Positions 5,288-40,594 of a DNA stretch of 51,289 nt are shown one piece after another. Position 1 is the stretch's first letter. Each line of letters opens with the position of its first letter. The stretch covers positions 1 through 51,289 of the IMG/VR virus record IMGVR_UViG_3300037246_001819; one strand, written 5' to 3'. The translations under genes and the position numbers were made by a program. A model generated the notes under the pieces. It worked only from the letters and a program-made list of their open reading frames with translations. It was not told the DNA's origin and ran no database searches. This DNA is from a virus (taxonomy: Duplodnaviria > Caudoviricetes).

Positions 5288-5305
5288 TTTCGCCAATTGG
5301 CGAAA
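5288..5305. promoter_or_regulatory. 18-bp palindrome TTTCGCCAATTGGCGAAA, copy 1
   Basis: Exact palindrome just upstream of an RBS and ATG 5323. Confidence 0.9.
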
Positions 5306-5322
5306 CACGAAAGGATCAAACC

Positions 5323-5691
5323 ATGAGCGAGACGAAACACACGCCCGGGCCCTTGACTGTGGAGTGTCGCTTCCCGAACCATGAGGTTCCCGATGGCTAC
5401 ACGATTCACGCGCCCCGCGGCTCCCGTTTCCCGCCCGCAGCCGGGTCACCCTCGACGACGTTACTGATCGCACAAATTAGTTCAATTTTCACGCACAGAG
5501 TAGGGCCCGCTGAGGCCAAGGCGACTGTCGACAGGCTCGCGCTAGCGTACAACGCCCACGACGACCTCCTGGCCGCGTGCGAGTTGGTTGCAGGTGCCCG
5601 GCGTGGCGCATATGGGCAAGAGTACAACATGGCCGCTGCGTACAAAGCGGTTGACGCTGCCATCGCCAAGGCGACGCAGAAGCCAGTGTAA
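5323..5691 (+). CDS. Hypothetical protein (KHTPGP...NAHDDLL type), paralog of 9101..9409
   Basis: AAGGA RBS; shares NAHDDLLxACE and AAxAKA with the 9101 gene. Confidence 0.8.
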   Translation: MSETKHTPGPLTVECRFPNHEVPDGYTIHAPRGSRFPPAAGSPSTTLLIAQISSIFTHRVGPAEAKATVDRLALAYNAHDDLLAACELVAGARRGAYGQEYNMAAAYKAVDAAIAKATQKPV

Positions 5692-5717
5692 CCCGTTACC
5701 AGTGCAAGGATTCCCGT

Positions 5718-5735
5718 TTTCGCCAATTGGCGAAA
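5718..5735. promoter_or_regulatory. 18-bp palindrome, copy 2
   Basis: Exact TTTCGCCAATTGGCGAAA, intergenic. Confidence 0.9.
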
Positions 5736-5758
5736 CCTTCAACGAAAGCGAGGGCATC

Positions 5759-5989
5759 ATGTGCTTCGGACACCCTGAAATCCAAGACACCGCGGTTATC
5801 GGCGACGCCTGCCCACGGCCGACTTGGCGACGCGCGCAGGTCACGCTCATTACCGAGACCGGGCGTTACGCTGGCCGACCGGCGTGGATAACCATCAAGC
5901 CGGGCGCCGATCCGATTCGCCTAGGTGTTGAGATGGCCCACGAGGAACAGTGCGGGATCGAGCTACGCATCCCGCGCGACACGTTTTGA
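5759..5989 (+). CDS. Hypothetical protein
   Basis: ATG after GAGG, downstream of palindrome 2. Confidence 0.6.
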   Translation: MCFGHPEIQDTAVIGDACPRPTWRRAQVTLITETGRYAGRPAWITIKPGADPIRLGVEMAHEEQCGIELRIPRDTF

Positions 5990-5998
5990 GCCGCCGCC

Positions 5999-6088
5999 AT
6001 GACCTACCGAGACCGCCAGAACCGATGGATAGTCGCCACGCTCGGCGCGCTGCTCGTGGCCGCGCTGATCGAGCTGGCGACGCACTGA
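5999..6088 (+). CDS. Small single-TM peptide (29 aa)
   Basis: MTYRDRQNRWIVATLGALLVAALIELATH; fills an operon gap; not in the ORF track. Confidence 0.5.
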   Translation: MTYRDRQNRWIVATLGALLVAALIELATH

Positions 6089-6104
6089 CACGGAGAGTAG
6101 ACCG

Positions 6105-6296
6105 ATGAACGTCGAAATCACAGATAAGGCCAGGTCGCTTTGCGACTGCGGGCATACTGGCGACGGGCCGAACAGCCAGCACGAGGATCTTATCCAGCAA
6201 GGGCACGGGCCTTGCCGGCAATGTGACTGCCAGCGATTCAGATGGGTGAAGTTCCTGCCAGAATTCGAGCAGAAACACCCCGTAAAAACCCGATAG
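6105..6296 (+). CDS. Small Cys/His-rich (zinc-binding) protein
   Basis: CDCGH...H...CRQCDC; GGAG RBS. Confidence 0.75.
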   Translation: MNVEITDKARSLCDCGHTGDGPNSQHEDLIQQGHGPCRQCDCQRFRWVKFLPEFEQKHPVKTR

Positions 6297-6374
6297 CCGA
6301 TCTGAGGCGAACGCGCCCCCACGCGGGGCGCGCTGCCCCGGACCGTCAACCCCGGGAGAAACGGAGTTAGAACC

Positions 6375-6710
6375 ATGAGCGAACAGGAAGATTTGTTTGG
6401 CCCGGTCATCTCGACGTACACGAGCGAGCAGGCCATCGAGGATGGGTTTTTGTGCCAGCCGTACCCGAACAAGTTCCCGGGCTGGTGCTTCACGGCTGGC
6501 GTACACGCCGCTATCGAAGCGAAGGATGACGGGCGCACCTACGCCCAGAAGGCCATCCCGCTGCTGATGGACGCGGCAATGATCGTTCGGGCGCAGCCTG
6601 GCGACCATCTGTACACCAAGGGGCTATTCGGCAACGTGACCGACAAGGAGGTTTGGATCGGCGCGAACGAACTCGGCGGCTTTACGCTGATGTTCCCAGA
6701 CGAGTATTAG
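6375..6710 (+). CDS. Hypothetical protein resembling DUF6573
   Basis: FGPVISTYTSEQAIEDG at the N-terminus and TLMFPDEY at the C-terminus; GGAG RBS. Confidence 0.75.
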   Translation: MSEQEDLFGPVISTYTSEQAIEDGFLCQPYPNKFPGWCFTAGVHAAIEAKDDGRTYAQKAIPLLMDAAMIVRAQPGDHLYTKGLFGNVTDKEVWIGANELGGFTLMFPDEY

Positions 6711-6774
6711 CCGAAACGCGCCACCGGGCGCGTCTGCCGGGATTCGGTTTCCCGGCACTGACGAGGCAACCGAA
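6710..6774 (+). ncRNA. Hammerhead ribozyme, type II, with loop-tail pseudoknot
   Basis: GCC-GAAAC-GCGCC(ACCG)GGCGC-GTC^-TGCCGGGA(TTCGGTT)TCCCGGCA-CTGACGA-GGC-AACCGAA; complete catalytic core; predicted cleavage after 6734. Confidence 0.9.
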
Positions 6775-6791
6775 CAGAAGGAAATACGGTT

Positions 6792-7337
6792 ATGAAACGC
6801 TACTACTGCGAACGTCACCTGATTGAGCATTTGCGGTCGGCTCCAGAGCTTGCCGTCAGGGATGCCGCCACGGTGATCCAGACTGCCGCGTGCAACCCAG
6901 CGGACTGTCCGCGCTGCCAAGAGACAACGAGCGAAGTCCCCCCGGAAAGTAACGAGCTCGCGGAGGTCGTGGACAGATTGACCTCTCCCCCCTGCCAGCG
7001 CACCCCGGGGGAGCTCGTGCACGTTGACGCCAAGCTGTGGGCGAAGCTCTGCCAAGCGGTCGCCGACTATCGCCTGTACACCATGGCCCATCTCGAACCG
7101 TTCGCGCTCAAAACGCTCGTAACCGCAACTCGCAACCTGGTCGGCGCATGGCACGCAGCCGGCGCCGACGCCGCGGCCGACGGGATCCTCCAGCAGATCG
7201 ACCGGGCGAAAGTCGAGGACGAGCCGGCCTTAACGGTTCAGGATCTTTCCGCCAAGCTGGACGACGCTTATGGCATCCAGGCAGAGCAAATCAACGTTCT
7301 GGCCGCTCGCCTCGACAAGATTGAGAGTGCCCGATAA
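6792..7337 (+). CDS. Hypothetical protein
   Basis: AAGGA RBS; 181 aa; C-terminal coiled coil. Confidence 0.7.
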   Translation: MKRYYCERHLIEHLRSAPELAVRDAATVIQTAACNPADCPRCQETTSEVPPESNELAEVVDRLTSPPCQRTPGELVHVDAKLWAKLCQAVADYRLYTMAHLEPFALKTLVTATRNLVGAWHAAGADAAADGILQQIDRAKVEDEPALTVQDLSAKLDDAYGIQAEQINVLAARLDKIESAR

Positions 7338-7389
7338 ACGGGCCGCCTGATTTTCCGACCGAAATGCCGCACCAGGCATGAGTTATGAC

Positions 7390-7407
7390 TTTCGCCAATT
7401 GGCGAAA
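7390..7407. promoter_or_regulatory. 18-bp palindrome, copy 3
   Basis: Exact; followed by cacgaaagga..aaccATG as in copy 1. Confidence 0.9.
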
Positions 7408-7425
7408 ACACGAAAGGACAGAACC

Positions 7426-7632
7426 ATGACGCCAAAAGAACAGAAACGCGCCGCCTTATCCGCTGGTCTTGACCAAGCGTGGGCAGCACTTGACCTCGGC
7501 CTTGAAACCTTGGGCCCCGCTGCCCACCGTTGGCCCAAAGATAGCCCCGAGAACATCCTCATAAGCGCGGCACTCCACGTCGTCTGCGCCGAACTATGTG
7601 CTCGGCGCGCCCGCGCGCAGAAACCGACGTAA
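7426..7632 (+). CDS. Hypothetical protein
   Basis: AAGGA RBS; 68 aa. Confidence 0.7.
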   Translation: MTPKEQKRAALSAGLDQAWAALDLGLETLGPAAHRWPKDSPENILISAALHVVCAELCARRARAQKPT

Positions 7633-7679
7633 CCCGCCATTGTGCATCAGCTTACTGTTTTCGCCAATTGGCGAAAACC
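7618..7679 (+). repeat. 62-bp module containing palindrome copy 4 (7659-7676); inverted copy at 21573-21634
   Basis: 57/62 identical to the reverse complement of 21573-21634. Confidence 0.92.
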
Positions 7680-7689
7680 GGAGAACGCC

Positions 7690-7788
7690 ATGCTAATTGA
7701 AGACCAACTCGACCGGGCGTTGCTGCCCCTGGTTCTACTACTGGCGGTCGCGGTGATTGCGTTTGCGGTCATGCGACTCGCCCAATGA
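7690..7788 (+). CDS. Small single-TM peptide (32 aa)
   Basis: GGAGA RBS; MLIEDQLDRALLPLVLLLAVAVIAFAVMRLAQ; not in the ORF track. Confidence 0.65.
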   Translation: MLIEDQLDRALLPLVLLLAVAVIAFAVMRLAQ

Positions 7789-7798
7789 GGAGAAAACC

Positions 7799-8362
7799 AT
7801 GAACGAGACGAAACACGTCTGCCTCGCTTGCGACGAAGCCATGTCGGAAGAGCAATTCGAGGAGTCAGACTTCTGCCAGGAGTGCGACGGTTGGCACGAC
7901 GTGGTGTACTGCACGATCTGTGATGTCTCTACAGCGGACGATCCCGAGTGCCGACACCTGGAGTGGTTGCCCGACGATGGTCTGTGGGGAGGATGCGGTT
8001 CGTCGGAGACGTCGCCAAGGTTTGAGAGTGAACGCGACGGATTGTGGGCGATGCTGGATGCCGTGCCTGAGATGGCGGGCGCGTTGCGACGTGCGATGCG
8101 CAAGCCTCGCCTGTTGAACGTCTTTGAGCACGGCCCGATTATCGGCACAACGACGCTGGACCTAATAGTTGGCAAGCGAGACTTCGGGGGGCGTTTTTGG
8201 CCCGACCTTGATCTGCGCTGCCGCAGCGGCATCTATTGGCTGTCCTCGCTGCTCGGTGGCAGGGCGGGATGGGCGCGTCGGCTTACCGTCCGCTGGATAG
8301 ATCAATGGCGCCGCCATCGCCAACTGGCGAAAAGGAGCATCCAACCATGCCCGAAGAAATGA
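7799..8362 (+). CDS. Hypothetical Cys-rich protein
   Basis: GAGGAG RBS; several CxxC pairs. Confidence 0.7.
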   Translation: MNETKHVCLACDEAMSEEQFEESDFCQECDGWHDVVYCTICDVSTADDPECRHLEWLPDDGLWGGCGSSETSPRFESERDGLWAMLDAVPEMAGALRRAMRKPRLLNVFEHGPIIGTTTLDLIVGKRDFGGRFWPDLDLRCRSGIYWLSSLLGGRAGWARRLTVRWIDQWRRHRQLAKRSIQPCPKK

Positions 8363-9096
8363 AGAAACTAGCCGCCCTCTACGCCCGATTCTCGCCCCGG
8401 CCGGCGACGAAGGTCCGTACCTGCGTCAGCATTGACATGCAGCTCGAGCGGATGCGCGAATACTGCCGCGGGCCCGCCGGCCTGACGATCCTGCACGAGT
8501 TCGACGAGCCGGAAACCAGCGCGTCGACCCCGTTGGTCGAACGGCCCGAGGGCGCGAAGCTGCTCGAGGCGCTGCGATCCCAGCAGGTCAACCAGGTCGT
8601 CGCCTACGCGATGGACCGGTTATTTCGTAACCAGAACGAAGCGATCGAGACGATCGAGAAGTGGCACAAAGTCGGCATCGGCGTCCACATTCTCGACTGG
8701 TGCGGCGCCGGGCAGCTCAACACGAGCACCCCACACGGGTATTTGATCCTGACGATCACCGCGGCCGTCGCCGAATACTCGCGGCGCGACACCGCCGCGC
8801 GGACGCGGGCAGCCGCGGAGTACCGGCAGCGAACCGGAACCGCCATGGGCAACCCGCCGCTCGGCTGGCGACGCGTCAAGCGAGGCGAGACTTGGATCCT
8901 CTTGCCCGAGCCGCGCGAACAGGAAGCGCTGGCCTACATCAAACGCCGCAAGGCCGAAGGCGCGACCTACTACAAGATCGTGCAGGAGTGCAACGAGCTC
9001 GGATTCCCCGCGCGCGGCAAATGCTGGCGCCACTCGACCGTTAAGCGCGCCCTGCGCCGGGCCAACCGTAAGATCGAACCTCAACCACAGGAGTGA
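8347..9096 (+). CDS. Serine recombinase (resolvase/invertase catalytic domain plus short C-terminal DNA-binding region)
   Basis: LYARFS catalytic Ser motif, SIDMQ, ERPEG..LL, DRLFRN, MGNPPLGW; AAGGAG RBS; degenerate palindrome TCGCCAACTGGCGAAAA at 8317-8333. Confidence 0.9.
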   Translation: MPEEMKKLAALYARFSPRPATKVRTCVSIDMQLERMREYCRGPAGLTILHEFDEPETSASTPLVERPEGAKLLEALRSQQVNQVVAYAMDRLFRNQNEAIETIEKWHKVGIGVHILDWCGAGQLNTSTPHGYLILTITAAVAEYSRRDTAARTRAAAEYRQRTGTAMGNPPLGWRRVKRGETWILLPEPREQEALAYIKRRKAEGATYYKIVQECNELGFPARGKCWRHSTVKRALRRANRKIEPQPQE

Positions 9097-9100
9097 AACC

Positions 9101-9409
9101 ATGAGCGAGACGGAACACACGTCGTTGCTGCCGTTGACGTGGAACAACACTACCCGAGAGATCAGAAATGCTGAAGGTTACATTGTCGTCGAGGTGAAAG
9201 CCCATCGAGCCATGGGGTATGGTCCGTTACTTGTCCGCGCCGTCAACGCCCACGACGACCTCCTGACCGCCTGCGAACGAATCTTGGACAGCCACGGCGA
9301 ATGTTCCAAATCCGATGTCGCCGATCAGGTTGTGAGGCTGCGCGTACCAATGGCGACGATGGCCGCAGTAGGAGCTGCCGTCGCGAAGGCCAACCCGACA
9401 GGTTCGTAA
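9101..9409 (+). CDS. Hypothetical protein, paralog of 5323..5691
   Basis: AGGAG RBS; NAHDDLLTACE. Confidence 0.75.
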   Translation: MSETEHTSLLPLTWNNTTREIRNAEGYIVVEVKAHRAMGYGPLLVRAVNAHDDLLTACERILDSHGECSKSDVADQVVRLRVPMATMAAVGAAVAKANPTGS

Positions 9410-9479
9410 GTCCAGAAGAAGCCGGCCCGGCCGCGAAGCCACCTGCCACGCGACTGGGCCAACCCGAAAGGAGATACGA

Positions 9480-9683
9480 CTATTCTCGCCCAGGCTCCGC
9501 CGGCGTGCAAGCCTGGGAGTTCCATGGAACATCCACGAATTTGATTTTGCGGCGATTCCGCTCCAGCCAGCGCTCCAGGGTTTCGTAACTCTCGGCGCTC
9601 AGCGGCGCTGGCCATTCCAAAACGACCTCGCCTTCCTCAAGCGTAAGAACCTCTCGTTTTGTCACACAGTCTCGGACACGCAT
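9480..9683 (-). CDS. Hypothetical protein
   Basis: GGAGG RBS; last gene of the - strand block. Confidence 0.6.
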   Translation of the reverse strand: MRVRDCVTKREVLTLEEGEVVLEWPAPLSAESYETLERWLERNRRKIKFVDVPWNSQACTPAEPGRE

Positions 9684-9685
9684 GC

Positions 9686-10024
9686 TCAATCCTCCGGCGT
9701 GCAAGCCTGCCGCTCGACGAGGGCTTCGCGCCATCTCAAATGTACAGCCGCCCGCTTGATATGGGTGTCATACTCGTCGGGTTCGATGGCCGCAGCGAGT
9801 ACCTCGTCGAGTGCCTGATCGCATCGGTTCCGCAGCCGCCCGACCTCGGCCTTTGCCTCGACCATTGCGACGCGGTAATCACGGGCATGTCTGCGGTACA
9901 TGTCACAGTTACGATTCAACCGCTCGACGTCAGCCTTGAGCGCGGCATACCCTTGCTTAAGCTGCATGGCCGCCCACGCCGGATCACCTCCTGGCAGTTG
10001 GACATTATCGTTTTCCTTTGTCAT
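9686..10024 (-). CDS. Hypothetical coiled-coil protein
   Basis: GGAGG RBS; ALKADVERL heptads. Confidence 0.7.
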   Translation of the reverse strand: MTKENDNVQLPGGDPAWAAMQLKQGYAALKADVERLNRNCDMYRRHARDYRVAMVEAKAEVGRLRNRCDQALDEVLAAAIEPDEYDTHIKRAAVHLRWREALVERQACTPED

Positions 10025-10397: not shown

Positions 10398-10408
10398 CGG
10401 TCGTTCCT

Positions 10409-10621: not shown

Positions 10622-10640
10622 TCCCTTTCTCGCAAATCAC

Positions 10641-11423: not shown

Positions 11424-11498
11424 CGGTTCCTCGCGGGACGGCGCCGGGCCCGTTGGGCAGGGTTTCCGACGCCGCCCCTTCCTGAGGAGGAATCAGTG

Positions 11499-14041: not shown

Positions 14042-14239
14042 TCAATCCTTCCAGCACGTCCGATGAATGTCCCAGGCGCGCAATTCACGCTTCAGCGCCG
14101 AGAGCACATCAGGGACTACATTAGCCCAGCGCAAACGTCCGCAACACAGGAGGGATAGTTCGCGTATGACCCTATCACCCTCGCCAACAGTCTTGCGGGC
14201 AGAATGAATCGCATCGGTCGCTTCACGCCAGTCCATCAC
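14042..14239 (-). CDS. Hypothetical protein
   Basis: Coupled to the upstream gene; 65 aa. Confidence 0.7.
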   Translation of the reverse strand: MMDWREATDAIHSARKTVGEGDRVIRELSLLCCGRLRWANVVPDVLSALKRELRAWDIHRTCWKD

Positions 14240-15012
14240 GTCACCTCGATTCCTTCGGGGAACTCACGTTTCGCCCAGCTCGGCCAGCGCGGGTCGGCCA
14301 TATCCTTTACGAGCTTGCCGTCGACGCTCACGGCCTTGTTGAAGCAAGGCACGCCCGCGTTGCGGCACTGCTCGTTGATGCTCTCTTGCCATTCCAGCTT
14401 ACACGGGCGATGCTTCGCACCGGTCTCGGGGCCGACGATGACCCAATCAATATCGAACTCATTCATGCAGACAGAACCGTCACGCAAAACCCCATCGCTG
14501 CTAGACCAGCAACAATGACAGCCAGGGCAGCGAAGCTGAATCGGCCCCAACAGCGGCTCGACGGACAGCATGCGCACGCTAGTCGGACACGCCAGCAGTT
14601 GCGGTATCCGCACGTCGGCCCAGTGCTGGTTCTCGACGGTCGTGGCAGCGATGATGTTGTCGGCGAACATGCTTGAATCACACTTCGCGAGGCGTTCGAT
14701 GCGCTTGGTGAGAACCACGAAACGGTGCCAATTTGCCGACCGCATCACAATGAAGGCCGCGCGTAGCTCGAGGGCGATGACGCGCCTGTGAAAGAGATCA
14801 TTCCACGCAGCCCAGAGCGTAGGCTTGCGAACCGAGAACGGCAGTTTCAGCTTATCCTCCCGAAACCGCACCGACCCGTCGCGCCTGTACTGGCGCTCCA
14901 TGCCGAGCGCCCAACAGTTATCGCACGCTTCGCTGACCTTCGTACAGCCAGTGACCAGCCCCCACGGCCGTTGCCACCACATCCCTTTCGCCACACGCTC
15001 AGCGCTAATCAC
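14236..15012 (-). CDS. Gp37/Gp68 (DUF5131) family protein
   Basis: TGCTKVSEACDNCWA, DLFH, LTKR, TVENQ, LSVEPLLG, IDWVIVGPETG. Confidence 0.9.
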   Translation of the reverse strand: MISAERVAKGMWWQRPWGLVTGCTKVSEACDNCWALGMERQYRRDGSVRFREDKLKLPFSVRKPTLWAAWNDLFHRRVIALELRAAFIVMRSANWHRFVVLTKRIERLAKCDSSMFADNIIAATTVENQHWADVRIPQLLACPTSVRMLSVEPLLGPIQLRCPGCHCCWSSSDGVLRDGSVCMNEFDIDWVIVGPETGAKHRPCKLEWQESINEQCRNAGVPCFNKAVSVDGKLVKDMADPRWPSWAKREFPEGIEVT

Positions 15013-18590: not shown

Positions 18591-18770
18591 CTATGTTTCG
18601 ATCAGCCCCATTTTTCTCGCGATGCCCTCCAGCGCCCGCGACTGGCTCTCGGTCAACTCGCGGTCTCGCCAGTTCTCGTCTAGGTTGTCGAGAAACTCGA
18701 TTTCCCAGGCGGTCAGGCCCGCTTCCAGTTCGAGCAGTTCTTCGACGACCGACACGTGGTCTGTAATCAT
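18591..18770 (-). CDS. Hypothetical protein
   Basis: LTAWEIEFLDNL...LTESQ motif; ATGA coupling. Confidence 0.7.
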   Translation of the reverse strand: MITDHVSVVEELLELEAGLTAWEIEFLDNLDENWRDRELTESQSRALEGIARKMGLIET

Positions 18771-19690
18771 GGCTTCACCCCTGGCTCGTACCGCTTCATC
18801 TGCTCGTAGAGCGCCTTGGGCACCCAGCCCTGCCGTTTGCACGCATCACAGCCCACGCCGGCGCACTTGCAGACCGCGTACGGCATCGCCCACTTGACGG
18901 CCATCCAGGCGTTTTTCAAATCCCTCGGCGCGTCGTCGTCGATGTGTGCCCCGATGGGTTCCTCCGCGAGCTTCGAGACCTCGTGGTAGATGGCGTTGAT
19001 CCGTCGGGCCAGATCCACAATCCTTTCACTCTGATTGAAAATTGCCGCCTGGTCGCTCGTCAACGCGTTGCCCACGCTGTCTTTAGGGCTGCTTTCGCCA
19101 ATTGGCGAAACTCGTCGCTTCCGACCTTTCTCCGCTTTGGCCACCTGCGCATCCACCCCCCGCACCGTTTTCTCGCCGGCCTCGATCGCAGGTACTTGGC
19201 TCGGGGCGTGACGGATCACGCGGGCGGCTGCGTCGACGACGCGCACGCCGATCCCGAGAACTTGAGCCAGATGTTGGCGGATGGCCTGTATGCCAAGCTG
19301 CTTGTCCGTCAGACCGGCTCGGAGTCGTTCAGCGTTCTCGGCGTTCCAGTATTGGGCCAGTCGCTCAGCCGCCAACCCCTTGTCGCTGACGCTCATGTGC
19401 CGCCTCACGCACTCGCGGGAGAGAACGGCATCAACAACGCTCTCGTCGGCCCGCAAGCGCTGATATTTCGGCTCGATGCCGAGCTCGTCGCACACCAGGT
19501 ACCGATGCCGGCCGGAGATGATCTTGCCCTCGGCATTCGTCAGGATCGGCTCACGCACTCCGTTGAGCTGGATATCCGCCTTCAGCGCCTCATATTCGGG
19601 CTTGGTGAGCGGTCGCTGCGCGAACACAATCGAGTGCATATCGCGGTGCTCGATGTTCCCTGATCCTGCTCGGCCTGGGCGGGTCGTCAT
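18767..19690 (-). CDS. ParB-like protein (ParB/Srx N-domain, HTH-like region, C-terminal Cys cluster)
   Basis: EYEALKADIQLNGVREPI..IISGRHR (GxxR box); RRHMSVSDK; LAQVLGIGVRVV; CKC..GCDAC. Confidence 0.85.
   Translation of the reverse strand: MTTRPGRAGSGNIEHRDMHSIVFAQRPLTKPEYEALKADIQLNGVREPILTNAEGKIISGRHRYLVCDELGIEPKYQRLRADESVVDAVLSRECVRRHMSVSDKGLAAERLAQYWNAENAERLRAGLTDKQLGIQAIRQHLAQVLGIGVRVVDAAARVIRHAPSQVPAIEAGEKTVRGVDAQVAKAEKGRKRRVSPIGESSPKDSVGNALTSDQAAIFNQSERIVDLARRINAIYHEVSKLAEEPIGAHIDDDAPRDLKNAWMAVKWAMPYAVCKCAGVGCDACKRQGWVPKALYEQMKRYEPGVKP
19093..19110. promoter_or_regulatory. 18-bp palindrome, copy 5 (inside the ParB-like CDS)
   Basis: Exact; encodes SPIGE. Confidence 0.9.
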
Positions 19691-19704: not shown

Positions 19705-20022
19705 TCAGTCTTCCGGCACGTCAACATGGACCACACCGCGAGCCTCGCCAATGTAGCGTACCGTGCCGAGAGCGGGGCAGTGGCCGACCAGCGCAACCAC
19801 CTCGGCCCTGGTCAAGCGGTTTTCATCGGCAAGGAGCAAGGGTGGTACCCAACCACGGCCACTGACAAGGTTAACAAACACGGCCTGGCCATTGGGCATC
19901 ACGGCCAGTACGTGCGGTTGTCCATCGTCGTTACCCAGCATTACAACGCTGCCTCGTCCGATCGACGAAGGTGGCGGGAGTTTCGGATGCTCGGGGTAGA
20001 TCTCTGCCAGTGTGACACTCAT
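19705..20022 (-). CDS. Hypothetical protein
   Basis: GAGGAG RBS; 105 aa. Confidence 0.7.
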   Translation of the reverse strand: MSVTLAEIYPEHPKLPPPSSIGRGSVVMLGNDDGQPHVLAVMPNGQAVFVNLVSGRGWVPPLLLADENRLTRAEVVALVGHCPALGTVRYIGEARGVVHVDVPED

Positions 20023-20043
20023 GGGTCTCTCCTCGTTCGCATC

Positions 20044-20304
20044 GGGCGCCAGAACGCCCACAGGCGTTTGCCCCTACTGCAAGTACCCCAGGGCGCTAGG
20101 AAACCTCGTGGCGCGTCTACAGCCGGCACCGGGGCGTGAGCGTGGGGCGGGGCAACCGATACGCTGCACGCCTCACCGGTGCCATTCGGGCCATGGGCGA
20201 CGGATTATCGCGAACCGTCGCGCGGGACGCGAAATAACCGATGGCAGGGCCAGTAGGGGGTGAACCCTGCCATGCTCGGCGATTACCGCTCGGACCATGG
20301 CCCG
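20044..20304. ncRNA. Candidate large structured RNA with a long-range pseudoknot
   Basis: Multiple perfect 5-10 bp helices plus a 9-nt pairing 20071-20079/20251-20259. Confidence 0.55.
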
Positions 20305-20315
20305 TTCGCTCCTTG

Positions 20316-21557
20316 TTACGCTTCAAACGTCTGATCGCCCGCATCATCAGATTCCGGCGCCTGGCCCTCAAGCATCGCGCGGGCCTGCGCCAGCACGTCT
20401 GGCAACATCGCCTCAGGGACGTCGTTCGTGGCTCGCGCCTGCCCCTCTGTGAGGGTGTCGAAAATCCCCCAGACGGTCTCCCGCTCCTCCGGCGTCACCT
20501 TCTGCATGTCCTTGCCCGTCAAACTCGCCAGCTCCGTGACGAGCGCGCGCAGTTCCGTGCGCATCTCGTCCACCGTCGGGCCCTTCACCTGCGCCTCCGG
20601 GTGGGTGATCTTCTGGTGGTTCGCCAGATGTTCGGGTGGGAAGTGCAGACCGCAGTGCTCGCAGGTCAAATACCGGGCCGCAGGCGCTTCCGCTTGCGGC
20701 TTCTCGGGATCCAGGGCCGGCTCAGGCTTCGTCTCAGGCTCGGCCGTTTTCGTCACCTTTTCCATGCCCGTATCGCCGTGGCCGCGGTTCGGTTCAGCGC
20801 TTGCCTTGAAACCCTCCAGATCGACCGAGCCATGGTCACGCGGTTTGCGGGCCGTATCAGTCAGATCGCCAACCTCGCCATCCGGCAACGGAGCCGTCGC
20901 ACCGGTCAGCCTGGCATAGACCGCTTTGAACACCTTCCGCGTCGCCTTGCCAGTGATCGCATCGTTGCCCATTCCAGCTTGCACCTTCACGGGGATCCGC
21001 TCGTCAAGGTAGCCATCCGCGCCGCGCTTGCCGCGCTCGATTCGCTCCTCGACCATCTCCTCCCCGTCCAGCAACCAGCGCACGGTGAATGGTACGAGCG
21101 CCCCGTCGCCAACCATCTGCGCTACGCCGGGTGTCGGGACCACATTCGTCACCCCAGGAAACTCCATGACCTTGCGGACGAAATACTCTTTCGTCAGGTA
21201 GCAGCCCCCAAACAGGACGTTGAACTCGTTTCCGGTCACCCGCGCCCCACGCAAAAGGGCTTCGATCAGCGGGTCTATCACTTCCGCGGGCGTGTACGCT
21301 GGCTTCTTCTGCCTCGCGTCTGGGCGATCCGTCTTGAACCCCAGGCTGGTATTCATCAGCCCCATGATGTCAGAGGTGACCAGCGAGAGCGATACGATGT
21401 CCCGCATGCGCTGGATCGCGTGGGAGAGCTTGATCGACTCTCGCAGCCCCTTGTCCGCCTTCAACAACGACGGCCCGTGCGTCTCTACGATCTGGTCAAT
21501 CTCGTCCAAGATCGCGTCCGTGAAGTGAGCCTCAACGTGTTCTGGCTGTTCGGCCAT
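20316..21557 (-). CDS. Putative RecT-like ssDNA-annealing protein
   Basis: MNTSLGFKTD..IEA..G..GNEFNV..G.CYLTKE core with acidic Pro-rich tail; syntenic with the nuclease and ATPase; function inferred. Confidence 0.55.
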   Translation of the reverse strand: MAEQPEHVEAHFTDAILDEIDQIVETHGPSLLKADKGLRESIKLSHAIQRMRDIVSLSLVTSDIMGLMNTSLGFKTDRPDARQKKPAYTPAEVIDPLIEALLRGARVTGNEFNVLFGGCYLTKEYFVRKVMEFPGVTNVVPTPGVAQMVGDGALVPFTVRWLLDGEEMVEERIERGKRGADGYLDERIPVKVQAGMGNDAITGKATRKVFKAVYARLTGATAPLPDGEVGDLTDTARKPRDHGSVDLEGFKASAEPNRGHGDTGMEKVTKTAEPETKPEPALDPEKPQAEAPAARYLTCEHCGLHFPPEHLANHQKITHPEAQVKGPTVDEMRTELRALVTELASLTGKDMQKVTPEERETVWGIFDTLTEGQARATNDVPEAMLPDVLAQARAMLEGQAPESDDAGDQTFEA

Positions 21558-21572
21558 GGTTCGATCCTTTCA

Positions 21573-21634
21573 GGTTTTCGCCAATTGGCGAAAGGCGTAA
21601 GCTGATGCACAATAACGGGTTACGTCGGTTTCTG
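21573..21634 (-). repeat. 62-bp module containing palindrome copy 6 (21576-21593)
   Basis: Inverted 57/62 match to 7618-7679; precedes the RBS of the 21557 gene. Confidence 0.92.
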
Positions 21635-29100: not shown

Positions 29101-30860
29101 GGTTTGGCCTGCAACTCACTCACAAGTGCGGCCGGGGCGGTGGGATCTTCCACGACAACCGCCATCGCTTCGTCCCACACATCGGAGAATGCTTGCCTAG
29201 CGGCCTCCATCGCTGGGGGCAGGCCCCGGGCAGCACGCTCTTGATCGACAATGGCGTTCTGGATGCTCGTTACGCCTGGTGGTGGTGGCGGCGCAGGTGA
29301 TCCAGGCGTGGGGGGTTCGACTACTGCCGCTTTTTCTTGGCCGCTTTCTTGACCTTGTCCAGCGTCCCGAAGACGTACGCCTTCGCCCGCTTCCCCTTTA
29401 GCCCCTTCTTTCGGGCTGATTTCTTCAGCTCCCGGTGCAGTTTCTCGGGCATCGGTGATCTCCTCTGCTGGCTTCTTTTCGCCAATTGGCGAAACTACCC
29501 CCTGTTCGTCCCGGACCTGCGCCAGTCCCCGGGCGACCGTTTCTCGGTCAGCGGCCCGTGGAACGTCCGGCATGTCCTTACGTGAAATCGCCTGACCGGC
29601 GGCCTGCTTCTCGATCAGCTTGTCGACGGGGTCGGTTGGCTGTTCGCGTTCGGCCTTGGTTGGCTGGTCAAGTGGCTCGCCGGCAAGGCGGGTGTCGATC
29701 AGGTCAACAATCGCCCGCGAACCAGCACTGGTCTTGTACTGACCCGCGTGCCGCTTGCGCAGCGTGACCATCCCATCGGGCTCGAGTTGCCCCACAAAGC
29801 GGCGCAGCTCGGCGTGCTCACGCATCAGCGTCCGGGCGTCACGGGCAACGCCGGTAAGTTCGTCAGCGGTCTTCGAGCCGACAAACTCGCCCTTGTAGAA
29901 TTTGCGCATCGACCGGTAGCCCGCGAATGACGGCGGGATCAGCATGGCGATGACTATGTCTGTTTCGTCGCCGCCGCCAGCCGCTGCCAGACCGCCGAAG
30001 ATGCTTGACTCGGCCGCGACCTTGCCGGCCTTGCCCGCGAGCGACTTAGCCGGGATCGCCCCGATGCCCTGCAACGCGCCACCCATCGCCAGCCCGGCGC
30101 CAGGGGTTCCGCCGTTGACCAGGTTCTCAATCTCGAACGCCAGCGGCGTCTTCCAACTCTCTGATATGAACTTGGGAATGTACTTTCTTGTGACCAGTAT
30201 TTGGAGAATAGCGCTCCCCAGGCCGATGACGGTGTCGCCCACCTTCTCGGGTATGGTCTCGGCCGGCGGGATTTCCAAATCCCAGCGGCCACGTTGGTCG
30301 TGCAGCTTCGTCTTCTCGGCGTCGACGTACGACTGGCCCAGATAGGCTTTGGCTTCGCCGCCCAGACGCAGCAGCCAGCGCACACCGGGGCTGATTTCTT
30401 TGTCGCCCTTTTCGGCACGCATCTCTTGCAGCATCTGGTCGACTTCGCGGTTAGCGTAGATTCGCTGGATCTGCCAGCCGCGCATCCGGGCTTCGATCGT
30501 GCTGGGGCGCAAGTTCTCGGCGGCACCCAGCGGGATGTTCGCGACGTCCTTAACCAAGCGGTCGGCGTACGCACCAACCGCAGTGTCTGGCATTCCGCTG
30601 GGCTTCAACGGTGGATAGAGTTGACCGCCGGCGCCCGGTAGCGGGCCTGCCAACTGCTCAGGCGGGACGTCCGTGCTACCGCGTTGCCACGGGAACATCG
30701 CCGGCCGCCGTGCCGGTGGCTTCAGAAGTTCGTCGGCCTGGTCGAGCAGGGCGTCGCCGAGCTTGAGCAGGTCAGCGTCATTGATCGCACCCAGATCGGC
30801 GAGAGCGGCATCCGATGCACTCAGCAGCTCGGCGTCGCTTATCGTCGTCATCTGCGTCAC
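26112..30860 (-). CDS. Large internal virion (DNA ejection) protein
   Basis: 1582 aa, helical; last gene of the virion block; DPRSADFGKIKIG motif; function from synteny. Confidence 0.7.
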   Translation of the reverse strand: MTQMTTISDAELLSASDAALADLGAINDADLLKLGDALLDQADELLKPPARRPAMFPWQRGSTDVPPEQLAGPLPGAGGQLYPPLKPSGMPDTAVGAYADRLVKDVANIPLGAAENLRPSTIEARMRGWQIQRIYANREVDQMLQEMRAEKGDKEISPGVRWLLRLGGEAKAYLGQSYVDAEKTKLHDQRGRWDLEIPPAETIPEKVGDTVIGLGSAILQILVTRKYIPKFISESWKTPLAFEIENLVNGGTPGAGLAMGGALQGIGAIPAKSLAGKAGKVAAESSIFGGLAAAGGGDETDIVIAMLIPPSFAGYRSMRKFYKGEFVGSKTADELTGVARDARTLMREHAELRRFVGQLEPDGMVTLRKRHAGQYKTSAGSRAIVDLIDTRLAGEPLDQPTKAEREQPTDPVDKLIEKQAAGQAISRKDMPDVPRAADRETVARGLAQVRDEQGVVSPIGEKKPAEEITDARETAPGAEEISPKEGAKGEAGEGVRLRDAGQGQESGQEKAAVVEPPTPGSPAPPPPPGVTSIQNAIVDQERAARGLPPAMEAARQAFSDVWDEAMAVVVEDPTAPAALVSELQAKPRAVSGALEDALLLHRQITLQNDYDKSIERLEAAREGGDPVEIARAETSEALLASQLVEYYDVDKKVGTETGRALNARKMLADEAFTLMPMLAQTRKAKGTDLTAEDRAAVVETQRDIAGTQQAFDDYVQEADDQAAQAQSKDALEKLKKRVAKAKARIQSEPGPAAQDEPPEIVRVAPPRRAGPLDNPAVGKLARQLAEQFVAEGVTDRDELIDAVYAELLEVVPDLTRRQAMDAISGYGQYKLLDQDEIKVQLRDLKGQMQQVGKLQDMVAGLAPLKTGVQRREPSDEERRLIQEVNEAKKKYGFEVTDPVTQLKSALDGVKTRLRNQIADLEEQLATGTQLIRDRAGLPYDDEATALRERRDALRAEYDEMFGQRELSDERRVKMAIAAVEKSAAEYERRVKERDLFPGRKPSRTPMTAELAAARARRDAWKEQLRELQEVARPKKTAEQIALQSLKTRLVNRTAELKEKLARSDFAPKPKRKPLSLDKEAMRLRKENLEAKLAYMRGLEAFKWANRSAGQKVTDLSAETWRTIRSVLTSADVSAVARQGGFFNFGHPIQMVQELPQMFRAGLSRQGAVAAAESLRERPNWALYQRAGLELTELEGVLGKMEEAYMGRWTQKIPIVAASARAYVAFLNRQRADMFDALVAFVGRKGTVSDAEAEALANFVNGATGRGTLWKFKQAAVGLATVFFSPRYATSRFQLLFGAPFFHEGATGRVKVAIAKEYARTALGLGIFYSMVMAAAEMFAAFYGGEPEEYVQIESDPRSADFGKIKIGNTRIDPLFGLSQTTVLLSRVAGGQTKDAYGRLQDLSGKDKPFGKSDIVDVLARFLRAKLSPAAGAVVDVTAREGYIGEPVTVTSLPLDLSIPLALRDVYEAIEEHGISKGVALGLTAIFGLGLQTYQVDPGPMLDALAKPRPVKTAKGDETFFDTLGRWQDERDAALEWLGKQPLTVEQLEDVYWEHLLEQYPRPEQGNTRAAYKRRFLATTKGL
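29477..29494. promoter_or_regulatory. 18-bp palindrome, copy 7 (inside the 1582-aa CDS)
   Basis: Exact; encodes SPIGE in a low-complexity linker. Confidence 0.9.
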
Positions 30861-34359: not shown

Positions 34360-34368
34360 GATCTATCC

Positions 34369-36947: not shown

Positions 36948-36965
36948 TCGTTTGTTCTCCTCGAC

Positions 36966-37418
36966 TCACAGACCGCCAGCAACCAACCGATTCTCAACCT
37001 GATCCAACCAGCCGCCGAGCGTGAAGTACACCAACTCTCCATCTTCGTAAGCAAGAGGCAGATCCGCAGCCAGACCACTTCCGCTACCACCAACCGTAAC
37101 CCCGGTTAGCGCCAGGAGATCCCAAAAGCCCGGATCGCCAGCTCCCCCTTCCAGCACGATGTAGCCCGTATCCACGCCACCGAGCGACCACAAGAGCCTC
37201 TTCAACTCCTCCATCATCGTCAGGAATTCTTGCTCGGTGGTCTCGCCGCTTTCGGTCCCCATGACGAGCGCGCCACTTTCCATCAGGACACGACCGCCGC
37301 CGCCGGCCCCGCTGGTGAGCATCACATCAAGAGCTTCGAGCGCATCCAGCCGCATCGCGATCGACTGCAACGCCCGTCGGACTTCGATCAGGCTTTTCTC
37401 GCTCGGGCGCGTGCTCAT
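36966..37418 (-). CDS. Hypothetical virion protein
   Basis: ATGA coupling to the nozzle gene; 150 aa. Confidence 0.65.
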   Translation of the reverse strand: MSTRPSEKSLIEVRRALQSIAMRLDALEALDVMLTSGAGGGGRVLMESGALVMGTESGETTEQEFLTMMEELKRLLWSLGGVDTGYIVLEGGAGDPGFWDLLALTGVTVGGSGSGLAADLPLAYEDGELVYFTLGGWLDQVENRLVAGGL

Positions 37419-40150
37419 AGCAGCCGGTGCCTCCCAGCGTCCCGTAGTACCGCAGAAATTGTCTCGATCGCCCAACGGCTGTTGCCAGCGACGCTGATCC
37501 TCAGAACCGCGCTGTGTGCTCGCCGCCGCGTAAGCTGGACCTTGTTGGCGCCAGCGTGAAGCGCGCCGCTTTCTACCGGCGTCGTTGAAGCGAGCGCCGC
37601 TTCGGCCGAGTCGCCAGTGTAGAGCAGCCACGCCACACTATCAGATTCATCCCCGAGCGCGACGACAAGCTCGGTTATCAGCCCGGCCAACAGATTATTC
37701 GACCCCAACCGGAACGGCCCGTACTTCACGTACGAGAAGATCCCCTCATCATCGTCGGTCTGATAAACCATGCCCGTCTTGTAGACGTGGCCGCCTCGGC
37801 CACCGATCAACAGCCCGGCGCGCGAGGTCCCCGGCAGGAAGCCGGAGTGGGAATACATGACGACTCGATCGTTCGCCAGCGGCGAGCTGTCCGGCCAGAA
37901 CGAACCCGCCTTGGGATCAAACCAGTAGGACTTTGCCGTAGTCCCGTCGTATTGCTTGGGAGTGAAATTGATGAGCACGCCGCGCTCACTCGGCTCGTAC
38001 GCCAAGCAAATCCGCTGCTCGTGCCAATCGAGTTGGAGCAGTTCCTTTGGGATCCTGTCGCGCGAAAGCGGGATCGGGTAGACGTTGGCGCCCGGCGGCA
38101 GGCGATACAATCCGTCCGCGGCCAGGAAGATCAAGTCGCCTTCTGGCAACCAGCACCAAGCGTGCGGCCCGACGATCCCAACATTCTGGCTCAGGTTGTC
38201 TAGCGTACCGCCAAGGCCAGGATCGCCGCGCATGATCCAGAGCGCACCCAGCGTTCCGATGACGAGGTAATCATCCGAGAACGGCGCCGCCGAAGTGATC
38301 TCACGACCGTACAGGCCCAGCAGGGAGCCAGCGATCGCCGCGCCCGAGTCGGTCTGGCCGTAATCCCAGTCGTCGGGATCACCGTGTCTGCACAAGTAGT
38401 AGGCGAACGGCAGGCGCGGATCACCGGCCAGGAAGATTCGTTCGCCGAACTTGGCCCCAACCCGACAGCCGAGCGGAAAATAACGCGGCATATCACCCGC
38501 TTGGCTGCCGGAGAGGTTATCGACGGTCATCCAACTCGACAGCATGTGCACCCCGTCCTCGTCTGAGTAGGTGATGACCTTCGGCGAACGGTTCATGTAA
38601 AACTTAGCGTCCTGCGGTTCTGTATTTTGGCTAAAGCCTGTCGGATGCTTGAACACCAGTCCATCGGTGTCGCTGCCGTAGTAACCGATGTCGTAAATCT
38701 GGTAAGTGCCGGGATAGTCAGCCGCATAGATCAGGAGCGCACAGTTGCTGTAATCTTGGATCGAACCCTGAGTCAGAAAGATCGACGTCCAGTCGAAGAA
38801 GTTCTCCCCGTCCGGTTTCCACTTGAGATAGCCAAAGCCATCCCCGCCGAGGTATTTCCAGTAAACGTCGACGTTACCGGGCGTTTCTTCCTCGGCCTTG
38901 GTTGGGCCGCCCTGGTCGAGGATGTACGTCTTCTTGTAAAACGGGATCGCTTGCAGGAAGTCGCTGGACCCAAGCAAGATGCTGGTGTTGATGCTAGAGG
39001 GGGGCGGGACCGGATTTGCAGAATGGCTCAACGTCTCGTAATACGCTCTACCCTGGGCAACGACAATCGCCGCTTCCCGCCAGGTTCGTTCCTCGGTCGT
39101 ACGGTAGTATGCCAGGCGGAACACCTTGACCTTGCCGGTCGTGCCGATTTCGTTGTTCTCGATCTGGAAGCCGAAACGTCGCACTGGGGTTTCGCTCGGG
39201 GCCGGCACGGCCGAAGTCCCGGAGTAGAGGACCACCCCACGGAAGATGACTTGGATGCGGCCGTTGAACCGGTGACGCACCATCAGCCAGCCCGCATCGA
39301 CGTGCGAGAACGTCTTCTGCGCGAACGTGATCGTGGCGCCCTCTTGGGCACCCCCGGTGAACTTCTTGAACGTACCGTTCACGACGCCATCGGACCCGTT
39401 GGCGACGATCTCCACCTCGAACGAAGCGTAGTCCTTGTCGGGATCGTTGTCGTCCAGATAGCAGTACAGCCGGTACTTGCCACTGTACTTGCCATTGTCG
39501 GGCACGATCAGCATCTCAACCACGAGCTCGTGCCAGCTAGCCCAAGGAGCAACGCCCTTGGCCATGTCGAGCGGTTGGTGGACCGCCGTGACCGTCACGC
39601 CATAGGGACAGGTCGCCATCCCGTCGGTCACGGTCGGCAGCGTGGTCCCGACCTTCGTCGGCGCCTCCCACCGGGCGCTCAGGCCGTGCTGGAAGTCATC
39701 TTCAAGCACTGCCGCGCCGTCGGCCACCACGTAGGGCAGCGACGTGATGCACTGGATCATCGCGCGCGCGAGCAAGACCGCGACATTGCCGGACTCTGTG
39801 AACGGCTCAGTCACAGTACAGTTCACGGCGCTGATAACGAACTCGATGGTCCTAGACGTGGCTCCGATCGTAATGGTGTCGCCAACCATGTAATCGGCGA
39901 ACACCGGATCGTTGACTTTGACGTCTCGCGTCGTGTCATGGTCCCCGTTCAGGGTGCTGTCCCAGATGAAGTCCCTGATGAAGTGCCGGGTTACGCCAGG
40001 TCGGGAGCCGCCGCGTTCGCGCTGGTCGAACACGTCACGCGGGCGCACGTTCTGGGCATCGGGCGTGGTGTACGGAGGTTGGCGCTGAAGCGCCGCGCCC
40101 CGGTGCAGGCCCGCGAGCGGATAGACCAGATCAATTGCCCGCGTTGGCAT
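37415..40150 (-). CDS. Tail nozzle/DNA stabilisation-like protein (beta-propeller type)
   Basis: 911 aa; N-terminal AQNVRP..RGGSRPG; RIFLAG..GDPDDWD; FLAADGLY; position typical of P22 gp10/T7 gp12 equivalents. Confidence 0.7.
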   Translation of the reverse strand: MPTRAIDLVYPLAGLHRGAALQRQPPYTTPDAQNVRPRDVFDQRERGGSRPGVTRHFIRDFIWDSTLNGDHDTTRDVKVNDPVFADYMVGDTITIGATSRTIEFVISAVNCTVTEPFTESGNVAVLLARAMIQCITSLPYVVADGAAVLEDDFQHGLSARWEAPTKVGTTLPTVTDGMATCPYGVTVTAVHQPLDMAKGVAPWASWHELVVEMLIVPDNGKYSGKYRLYCYLDDNDPDKDYASFEVEIVANGSDGVVNGTFKKFTGGAQEGATITFAQKTFSHVDAGWLMVRHRFNGRIQVIFRGVVLYSGTSAVPAPSETPVRRFGFQIENNEIGTTGKVKVFRLAYYRTTEERTWREAAIVVAQGRAYYETLSHSANPVPPPSSINTSILLGSSDFLQAIPFYKKTYILDQGGPTKAEEETPGNVDVYWKYLGGDGFGYLKWKPDGENFFDWTSIFLTQGSIQDYSNCALLIYAADYPGTYQIYDIGYYGSDTDGLVFKHPTGFSQNTEPQDAKFYMNRSPKVITYSDEDGVHMLSSWMTVDNLSGSQAGDMPRYFPLGCRVGAKFGERIFLAGDPRLPFAYYLCRHGDPDDWDYGQTDSGAAIAGSLLGLYGREITSAAPFSDDYLVIGTLGALWIMRGDPGLGGTLDNLSQNVGIVGPHAWCWLPEGDLIFLAADGLYRLPPGANVYPIPLSRDRIPKELLQLDWHEQRICLAYEPSERGVLINFTPKQYDGTTAKSYWFDPKAGSFWPDSSPLANDRVVMYSHSGFLPGTSRAGLLIGGRGGHVYKTGMVYQTDDDEGIFSYVKYGPFRLGSNNLLAGLITELVVALGDESDSVAWLLYTGDSAEAALASTTPVESGALHAGANKVQLTRRRAHSAVLRISVAGNSRWAIETISAVLRDAGRHRLL

Positions 40151-40162
40151 CTCATCACACCA

Positions 40163-40507
40163 CTAGGACGGATTCTCCTGAATGCGCCAGCGCAGATTCG
40201 CCCCGACGTACACGGAGAACAGGAATAGCGTCTCCCCATCGGCATCGAACAGCGCCTTATCGTCGCCGGCCTGGTTGAAGCCCGTCGCGCACGTCACCTC
40301 AATGCTGGTCGTCACGGTCTTGGCGTTGAGGATCAACTGCTGGCCGGCCCGGGCTGGGGCTGCCAGCGTCCGCGTCTCGGCCCCAGCGCTAACCATCACG
40401 CACAGGCCCGATTGCGTGACCGGGATCGCCCCGGCATCGCGCGGGTCCGTAATCCGCTCGGTATCCCACGCCTCGGTCATCTCGTGTAAGTGGTTGTGAA
40501 CACCCAT
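40163..40507 (-). CDS. Small virion/decoration protein
   Basis: GGAGA RBS; ETRTLAAP..GQQL. Confidence 0.7.
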   Translation of the reverse strand: MGVHNHLHEMTEAWDTERITDPRDAGAIPVTQSGLCVMVSAGAETRTLAAPARAGQQLILNAKTVTTSIEVTCATGFNQAGDDKALFDADGETLFLFSVYVGANLRWRIQENPS

Positions 40508-40522
40508 TGTTCGTCTCCAAGG

Positions 40523-40594
40523 TTTCGCCAATTGGCGAAAGTCGTAACTCTTGACCCGACAATTACTTACGGGCCTTTTCGCCAGTCGGCGAAA
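40523..40594. promoter_or_regulatory. Palindrome copy 8 (40523-40540), GTAA-N19-TTAC element and a degenerate copy (40577-40594)
   Basis: Exact palindrome before the RBS; TTTCGCCAGTCGGCGAAA on the far side. Confidence 0.88.

Follow-up and report, generated by a model that had tools for sequence, protein, structure and literature searches.

An 18-bp palindrome dispersed in a phage genome, with an orphan ParB-like protein as its putative binder

We analysed a phage genome of 51,289 bp (IMG/VR record IMGVR_UViG_3300037246_001819; the window is this whole stretch), which carries eight exact copies of the 18-bp perfect palindrome TTTCGCCAATTGGCGAAA and a gene for a 307-aa orphan ParB-like protein that contains one of these copies. 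This arrangement is probably best explained as a ParA-less, KorB-like global operator system, in which a dimer of the phage's own ParB-like protein would bind the palindrome and most copies would serve as operators. The parts of this explanation differ in strength. It is very likely that a dimer recognises the palindrome as double-stranded DNA and quite likely that the ParB-like protein is the binder; a main effect of the system on transcription is slightly favoured, and the involvement of a nucleotide-gated clamp is doubtful. The window comprises the whole virus record, has a G+C content of ~62% and a 127-bp direct terminal repeat, and is estimated to be 100% complete. The phage is present in a single DNA sequencing run, from a marine sediment metagenome, which is probably the source sample; no RNA run was among those listed.

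An earlier, sequence-only reading of the window had listed eight exact copies of the palindrome, and all of them were recovered at the coordinates claimed, i.e. 5288, 5718, 7390, 7659, 19093, 21576, 29477 and 40523. With regard to the two near copies reported there, the one at 40577 (two mismatches, TTTCGCCAGTCGGCGAAA) was found in place, and the one assigned to 8317 (three mismatches, CATCGCCAACTGGCGAAA) actually starts at 8315. The recurrence also exceeds chance as had been proposed, with 10 matches at three mismatches or fewer compared to a mean of 0.04 and a maximum of 2 in 100 dinucleotide-preserving shuffles. The positions of the copies relative to our own, crude gene calls (66 proteins) are as follows.

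5288..5305: exact palindrome in the 67-nt spacer 5256-5322, 17 nt before ATG 5323 (122-aa gene)
5718..5735: exact palindrome in the 67-nt spacer 5692-5758, 23 nt before ATG 5759 (76-aa gene)
7390..7407: exact palindrome in an 88-nt spacer, 18 nt before ATG 7426 (68-aa gene)
7659..7676: exact palindrome in a 57-nt spacer, 13 nt before ATG 7690 (32-aa membrane-like peptide, then a 187-aa gene)
8315..8332: near copy with 3 mismatches, within the 3' end of gene 7799-8362; the ATG 8347 of a serine recombinase (249 aa) follows after 14 nt
19093..19110: exact palindrome inside the ParB-like gene, after the helix-turn-helix (HTH); read as VSPIGE
21576..21593: exact palindrome in an 83-nt spacer, 18 nt before the minus-strand ATG 21557
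29477..29494: exact palindrome inside an open reading frame (ORF) of 1582 aa; read as VSPIGE
40523..40540: exact palindrome in a 93-nt spacer, 15 nt before the minus-strand ATG 40507 (114-aa gene, then a 911-aa gene)
40577..40594: near copy with 2 mismatches and centre AGTC, in the same spacer as 40523 and 36 nt from the exact copy

Seven of the ten copies are held by six of the 29 gaps of at least 40 nt, in spacers of 57-93 nt, and the remaining three (8315, 19093 and 29477) lie inside genes. In the site-bearing spacers, the palindrome is followed by a Shine-Dalgarno sequence and, after 13-23 nt, by an ATG, which agrees with the distance of about 13-25 nt given earlier for the six exact copies upstream of start codons. 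The proximity of the sites to start codons suggests direct operators rather than action over a long range. Both exact copies inside coding sequences, one of them in the ParB-like gene, encode the SPIGE peptide described before. After the copy at 29477 come, in addition, GGAG and, at a distance of 24 nt, an ATG in another frame than that of the 1582-aa ORF. This ATG opens a very basic 43-aa ORF (29321-29452, minus strand; MPEKLHRELKK...), which shows the same start layout of palindrome, GGAG and ATG as the intergenic cassettes. In the main frame, the overlapping peptide PAEEITDARETAP is conserved without change in the relative P0167 despite variable flanks.

Upstream of four of the exact copies we found a promoter-like element, GTAAC-N18-TTAC, which ends 2-3 nt before the palindrome. 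The genome contains four matches to this motif compared to 0.19 expected, and all of them adjoin palindromes.

5258..5284, plus strand: promoter-like GTAAC-N18-TTAC, ending 3 nt before the palindrome at 5288
7629..7655, plus strand: promoter-like GTAAC-N18-TTAC before the site at 7659
21597..21623, minus strand: promoter-like GTAAC-N18-TTAC before the site at 21576
40544..40570, minus strand: looser version GTAAGT...TTAC between the two palindromes, preceding 40523

The exact match to the motif at 40544 is on the plus strand. Two of the cassettes (7618-7682 and 21570-21634), which lie 14 kb apart in opposite orientation, have 91% identity over 65 nt. The cassettes may represent unusual promoters in which the palindrome lies over the transcription start.

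The putative binder is encoded downstream of the site at 21576, which heads a minus-strand gene run coding for proteins of 413 aa and 78 aa and the ParB-like protein.

18767..19690, minus strand: 307-aa orphan ParB-like protein with a ParB N-domain (ISGRHRY), an HTH (LGIGVRVVDAAARV) and a C-terminal four-Cys domain
19705..21557, minus strand: 413-aa gene (20316-21557) and 78-aa gene, between the site at 21576 and the ParB-like gene

Profile homology and predicted structure identify the 307-aa protein as a ParB homologue that has an HTH, as had been proposed from its SGRHR box and HTH-like segment. PHROGs yielded weak ParB-like matches (best named one 4.4e-6), and the family profile matched Caulobacter ParB (6t1f) with an E-value of 1.9e-10. 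The AlphaFold2 model, built from 41 homologues, reached a predicted local distance difference test (pLDDT) score of 92.2, and its best PDB matches in Foldseek were Spo0J 1vz0 (E 4.5e-5), pNOB8 ParB-N, Myxococcus ParB, Caulobacter ParB, KorB 8qa8/8qa9 and Noc, with a probability of 1.00 to Spo0J, ParB, Noc and KorB chains. The HTH is covered by the profile alignments to ParB and Noc (positions 16-197), and helices are modelled at 134-145 and 149-161. Box III of the phage protein reads RECVRRHM and that of the family NLHRRHL, both aligned to ENVQRADL, where the canonical sequence is ENLQRxDL. Taken together, the Foldseek and profile matches indicate a real, divergent ParB homologue with an HTH and a non-canonical box II. 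The C-domain (residues 205-307, 103 aa with four conserved Cys) was modelled as a homodimer with a score of 0.70 compared to 0.23 for the best control; in the calibration of the tool, 20 of 30 proteins solved as pairs and one of 23 solved as single chains attained the mark. The runs agreed in at least 98% of contacts, with a pLDDT of at least 79 for the partner. This model, the fold of which differs from the canonical ParB C-domain by the four-Cys motif, supports a putative dimerisation of the C-domain. The reported lack of ParA was corroborated, as searches with PF13614 and PF01656 gave no match in the complete genome, each control search being positive in 14 of 14 reference genomes. Among the 49 of 66 called proteins scanned with Pfam and PHROGs, no further recognised DNA-binding domain besides that of the serine recombinase was found.

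In the mechanism that we propose, the putative dimer would cover the likely transcription start of six transcription units, which comprise the early small genes, the block with the RecT-like, ParB-like and helicase genes, and the tail block. A seventh, degenerate copy would precede the recombinase gene in the same way. Autoregulation would follow from the position of the ParB-like gene downstream of the site at 21576. The copies in the ParB-like gene and the 1582-aa gene lack the promoter element and might be roadblocks or serve for additional loading or bridging. That this protein binds this site, that binding represses transcription and that a nucleotide drives closure and sliding of a clamp are all steps that we infer.

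By comparison with relatives, the copy within the ParB-like gene is selected as DNA. Five close relatives of the ParB-like protein were found, as proteins only, in Logan/ENA. In two of them, P0002 and P0004 (81-83% identical), FRQLAK is present where the phage reads SPIGE, and these peptides correspond to two frames of the same 18-mer; the same position reads FREIAK in P0003 and FRTCAD in P0005. Two JGI contigs (L104 and L105), the proteins of which are 72% identical to that of the phage, carry TCCGCACATGTGCGGA, a 16-bp perfect palindrome, at the same spot in the gene. It differs from the phage palindrome at three symmetric position pairs and is thus a compensated palindrome of the kind that the earlier reading had suggested to look for in the parB genes of relatives. 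In IMG/VR, TCCGCACATGTGCGGA gave single, unrelated matches only. With regard to the copy at 29477 in the 1582-aa gene, VSPIGE is kept in the relative P0167 amid insertions and deletions, and a second VSPIGE follows 55 aa further on.

The ParB-like family is large, with 12,867 cluster-level representatives at E<=0.001. At least 530 relatives were present in IMG/VR, and the best 80 loci were examined. In 45 of these, a perfect palindrome 14 to 32 bp long is found within the ParB-like ORF, and the density of such palindromes is 0.57/kb inside the ParB-like ORFs compared to 0.12/kb outside. The palindrome is located 289-339 nt past the start of the match, i.e. in the loop before the HTH, in 40 of the 45 loci. 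With a threshold of 12 bp, 48 of the 80 loci show a loop-free perfect palindrome before the HTH, centred on AATT in 45 of the 48. All three frames are used to read it (19, 16 and 13 loci; GCAAATTTGC, for example, is read as ANL, QIC or KF), which rules out a purely protein-level motif and also counts against an RNA hairpin. The exact 18-mer of the phage was detected by pattern scans at the loop before the HTH in seven homologous genes (L008, L009, L012, L055, L061, L074 and L078), and the four of these that were scanned have MT-A70 or N6_N4 methyltransferase domains. Altogether, 31 of the 80 proteins are fused to a DNA methyltransferase (MT-A70 21, Dam 8, N6_N4 2).

The palindromes of the family covary with the recognition helix. 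In a set of 48 distinct combinations of half-site and helix from 59 loci, C or A at half-site position -3 against Arg or non-Arg at helix position 8 gave counts of 10/0/0/30, without exception (Fisher 1.2e-9, uncorrected for phylogeny), and the triplet from -6 to -4 follows helix position 7, with GGC for R, CGC for Q and TGC for A or F. When mapped on a tree of the N-domain alone, the first trait changes 11 times and the second 10 times, and the four independent supported pairs are all concordant. Two loci from outside this sample, both without an internal site, fit the same pattern. The record G011 (34.5 kb, 42% complete) codes for a full-length homologue without internal site and contains seven dispersed exact copies of a 26-28-bp palindrome with the core ACTGCAAATTTGCAGT. 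Six of these are intergenic, and one is located directly upstream of the ParB-like gene, ahead of a promoter-like sequence, TTGACA-N17-TAAGTT. The helix of this homologue, VAPRTVASAREL, belongs to the TGCAAA class, and its dispersed palindrome is as predicted. In L119, the helix (VSPRSVATAKEV) is nearly the same as that of L185 (VSPRSVATAKKV), and the only AATT-centred palindrome of L119 (core GATGCAAATTTGCATC), ~180 nt upstream of the gene, matches the in-gene palindrome ATGCAAATTTGCAT of L185. When a family member was used as query against INPHARED, only four distant matches were obtained, one of which, Acidovorax phage AP1, has no palindrome at the position before the HTH. In another viral record of 35.7 kb (G019), five copies of GCGCGT-N6-ACGCGC, 90-180 nt apart, are located at one end (79-706), and a full-length ParB-like homologue is encoded ~30 kb from this array, which could be iteron- or centromere-like.

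Although the sequence-only reading had raised the case of an abundant host repeat, none such was found in the genomes of 185,579 species (one genome each), among which the exact 18-mer occurred in 82 stretches. None of the five genomes with multiple hits that were searched whole had more than six copies, and those with 5-6 copies have a G+C content of 34-42% compared to 62% for the phage. On these counts, no sampled host carries the 18-mer as an abundant repeat. In metagenome-assembled genomes (MAGs) of low G+C content (2.2-2.5 Mb, one named WOR-3), the 18-mer forms the core of a 34-bp palindrome, TTTCGGTA-18-mer-TACCGAAA, which flanks a gene for an ArsR-type winged-helix protein of 103-108 aa (L059 1647 and 2015; L056 4460) and, with 5-6 occurrences per genome, looks like a small regulon. 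In the provirus G003, three copies (L007 2222, 2256 and 3434) surround a divergent pair of CI-like (264 aa, XRE HTH) and Cro-like genes, one of them directly after TTGACA. The exact 18-mer was therefore rejected as a clue to the binder, as it is also found as ArsR-type and CI/Cro operator elsewhere. In a second HTH family without Pfam match (W..LGY.SW.E...EFG.S.S.aYR...), the exact 18-mer follows right after the recognition helix and is read as (I/V/L)SPIGE (L005, L015, L070, L083, L084 and L090); here, SPIGE may be a protein motif met by chance. The literature search retrieved no paper with the 18-mer or its 16-nt core, and the single paper matching the 12-mer and those matching the 10-mer (on Drosophila, loop-mediated isothermal amplification assays and similar subjects) look unrelated.

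Several observations weigh against an operator system run by the ParB-like protein. Pfam gave no match for the protein at E<=0.01, and box II, GERRxR, is not matched, the phage sequence SGRHR(Y) and the family sequences DGRNR/DGRHR being aligned to AGERRWR of Caulobacter ParB. Since unrelated binders use the same 18-mer, the sequence alone names no binder. The helix of the phage itself, IGVRVVDAAARV, breaks the code of the family, as it combines C at -3 with Ala at position 8, and its in-gene site lies after the HTH and not before it as in the family. Between the phage and L104/L105, the sole change in the recognition helix is D to E at position 7, whereas the site changed at three pairs. For the covariation as such, a phylogeny-aware test had too few supported pairs for significance (median p 0.125). 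Dispersal is rare, as dispersed sites were found in only two of nine complete or partial records with full-length homologues, and a second copy of the in-gene 14-bp core (at most one mismatch) in two of the 80 loci (L162 exact, L135 one mismatch). In the window, no site is present in the packaging and head block of ~16 kb (40.6 kb through the ends to 5.3 kb), so that 'genome-wide', the term used earlier, was an overstatement. Finally, a scan for the sigma-70 consensus called no promoter at any site, the sole sigma-70-like promoter in 3400-9600 being located at 4292-4319 (TTGACT-16-CATAAT), so that the step 'operator over promoter' rests on an unusual motif.

Among the alternatives, it is unlikely that the palindrome is bound by another protein, be it a host regulator, the serine recombinase (8347-9096) or one of the many unannotated small phage proteins, and that the ParB-like gene merely holds a copy. 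In favour of such a binder are the deviation of the phage helix from the family code and the ArsR-type and CI/Cro-type operators with the same 18-mer elsewhere; the genes 5323-5691 and 7426-7632 are, moreover, each flanked by two sites, like the ArsR gene in the MAGs, and a near copy is located just upstream of the recombinase gene. On the other hand, the in-gene copy is kept across frames and shows a compensated change in relatives of the ParB-like gene. In addition, no DNA-binding domain was found in the small proteins scanned, eight or more dispersed recombination sites would scramble the genome, and the copy numbers and G+C contents of the multi-hit genomes described above speak against a host binder.

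We regard it as quite unlikely that the ParB-like protein mainly organises, condenses or protects phage DNA through nucleotide-driven loading, sliding and bridging, as ParB and Noc do, with transcription as a secondary effect. The architecture of ParB N-domain, HTH and modelled dimerising C-domain would suit this role, and so would the two exact copies inside genes without promoter element; one internal site in most family members and the methyltransferase fusions in 31 of 80 fit the idea of a protein that loads and then acts along the DNA. Against this role, seven of the ten copies keep fixed short distances to gene starts, the box II sequence deviates from the canonical one, and sites are missing from the 16 kb with the head and packaging genes.

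A third possibility, that the palindrome forms an RNA hairpin (7-bp stem, AAUU loop) in 5' leaders and acts as messenger RNA stabiliser or as translational operator for an RNA-binding protein, is very improbable. Eight of the ten copies lie 13-24 nt upstream of an ATG with the Shine-Dalgarno sequence in between, the near copy at 40577 keeps the stem and changes the 'loop' alone, and the predicted centroid folds of most leaders contain the hairpin. Nevertheless, the centre is self-complementary in the phage, in L104/L105 and in the 48 of 80 family loci described above, and this dyad symmetry through the centre favours a DNA site over a hairpin, since an RNA loop needs no self-complementarity. 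The z-scores of the folds are modest (-0.2 to -2.7, single-site leaders), the covariation of helix and bases points to a DNA-reading HTH and, if GTAAC-N18-TTAC is a promoter, transcripts would start inside the palindrome. It is extremely unlikely that the copies spread as a small mobile or recombinogenic cassette of upstream element, palindrome and Shine-Dalgarno sequence that marks module boundaries without regulatory function: this would explain the two 91%-identical cassettes and the filling of otherwise tight gene junctions (six of 29 gaps), but the palindrome is invariant where its flanks diverge, the gene-internal copies lack the cassette and the in-gene copy is kept or compensated in relatives.

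The favoured explanation, a ParA-less operator system of the phage's own ParB-like protein, can be compared to several known systems. On plasmid RK2, KorB has 12 OB operators. KorB and its OB operators are the subject of PMC11790492. Like KorB, the phage combines an HTH-bearing protein of the ParB family, the binding of which is predicted, with a short perfect palindrome that is repeated around a mobile replicon near promoters. As in KorB-type regulation, repeated palindromic sites are located ahead of several genes (eight exact and two near copies, seven of them in six spacers), where the promoters are putative. Unlike the phage system, KorB has a ParA (IncC), clamp-locking partners (KorA and TrbA) and a canonical pocket for cytidine triphosphate (CTP). 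The phage, on the other hand, has no ParA, no known locking partner, an SGRHR box II, and sites between promoter-like element and Shine-Dalgarno sequence rather than upstream or at a distance. In chromosomal ParB-parS systems, parS lies inside spo0J/parB. The phage shares with these systems a palindrome inside the own gene as well as fold and profile homology, but lacks ParA and a segregation context, and its site has a different, AATT-centred sequence; in the family, unlike in the chromosomal systems, the site has a constant codon position in the loop before the HTH and occurs in all three frames.

Cluster O mycobacteriophages such as Corndog carry more than 30 copies of TGTTCGGNNNCCGAACA, many of them between or just inside ORFs, and a ParB-like gene, gp90, without ParA; in the sections of PMC4351075 that deal with the repeat, its binder is given as unknown and gp90 is not linked to it by the authors. 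An invariant dyad-symmetric repeat across a phage genome together with a ParB-like gene without ParA is common to Corndog and our phage. Gp90 is a more canonical ParB, with an AGQRR box and no match from the hidden Markov model of the family, and the Corndog repeat has a 3-nt spacer, unlike the continuous palindrome of the phage. Of the 26 repeat copies in the right 34.8 kb of Corndog, none lies inside gp90; the nearest ones are ~150 nt past the end of this gene and 26 nt ahead of gp91. No paper combining Corndog, ParB and CTP was retrieved in the literature search. The stoperators of L5 gp71 and the operators of P1 C1 are examples of many dispersed sites through which one phage protein controls many operons. 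L5 gp71 and P1 C1 are not known to be ParB-like, and their sites, in contrast to those of the phage described here, are asymmetric. PMC4351075 refers to stoperators as well. Parts of a survey from 2025 (PMC12704722) describe orphan proteins with a ParB-CTPase fold on phages, often fused to methyltransferases. Our family resembles this class in being orphan, located on mobile elements and fused to MT-A70, Dam or N6_N4 domains. The stem 'palindrom' is absent from the main text of PMC12704722, and the passages of the survey that were consulted describe neither DNA targets nor in-gene sites.

Within the window, a small plus-strand block (4366-9409) is followed and preceded by genes in one long minus-strand direction. 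The two directions diverge from a 745-nt intergenic region (3621-4365), which holds a (GTCT)5 run at 4058-4077 and the sigma-70-like promoter at 4292-4319 but no copy of the palindrome. The plus-strand genes starting at 5323, 7799 and 9101 share near-identical initial DNA and peptide sequences (MSETKHT, MNETKHV and MSETEHT), and a 33-nt stretch with 94% identity is common to the genes 5323-5691 and 9101-9409. On the minus strand, two adjacent 242-aa paralogues (43357-44085 and 44189-44917) form a tandem duplication of 832 bp with ~81% DNA identity, and 14236-15012 codes for a DUF5131 protein (E 1.5e-46). The 413-aa gene downstream of the site at 21576 has a weak resemblance to RecT/ERF single-strand annealing proteins (atlas score 0.80), which we take as a lead only; the protein atlas gave no usable match for the 68-aa protein. 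Scans of IMG/VR with the ParB-like protein or the major capsid protein as single queries revealed no close phage relatives, and searches of INPHARED by blastn or tblastn with 5000-9000, the capsid protein and the ParB-like protein were all negative.

Beyond this phage, we put forward as a tentative and rather speculative idea that the whole family carries its own parS-like site in its own gene. This site would be AATT-centred, located in the loop before the HTH and readable in any frame, with a helix code in which Arg goes with C/G at +/-3. Nucleotide-gated clamps would load there, methyltransferase fusions would carry the enzyme along the phage DNA and, in our phage and in G011, the site would have been copied to the starts of operons to give a ParA-less master switch. 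The gene-internal site and the helix code were not found in the literature searched, which leaves many journals outside, and the dispersed operators are a variation of a known arrangement. Among the genes of phages and prophages that lack an explanation, those for orphan ParB-fold proteins belong to the most common. If the idea is true, each such protein comes with its binding site in its own gene, so that thousands of protein-DNA pairs would become predictable, with a readable recognition code. In that case, our phage and G011 would provide natural examples of a ParB-like genome-wide regulator without ParA, and the repeats of the Cluster O mycobacteriophages, the binder of which was unknown in the paper from 2015, might find a possible explanation.

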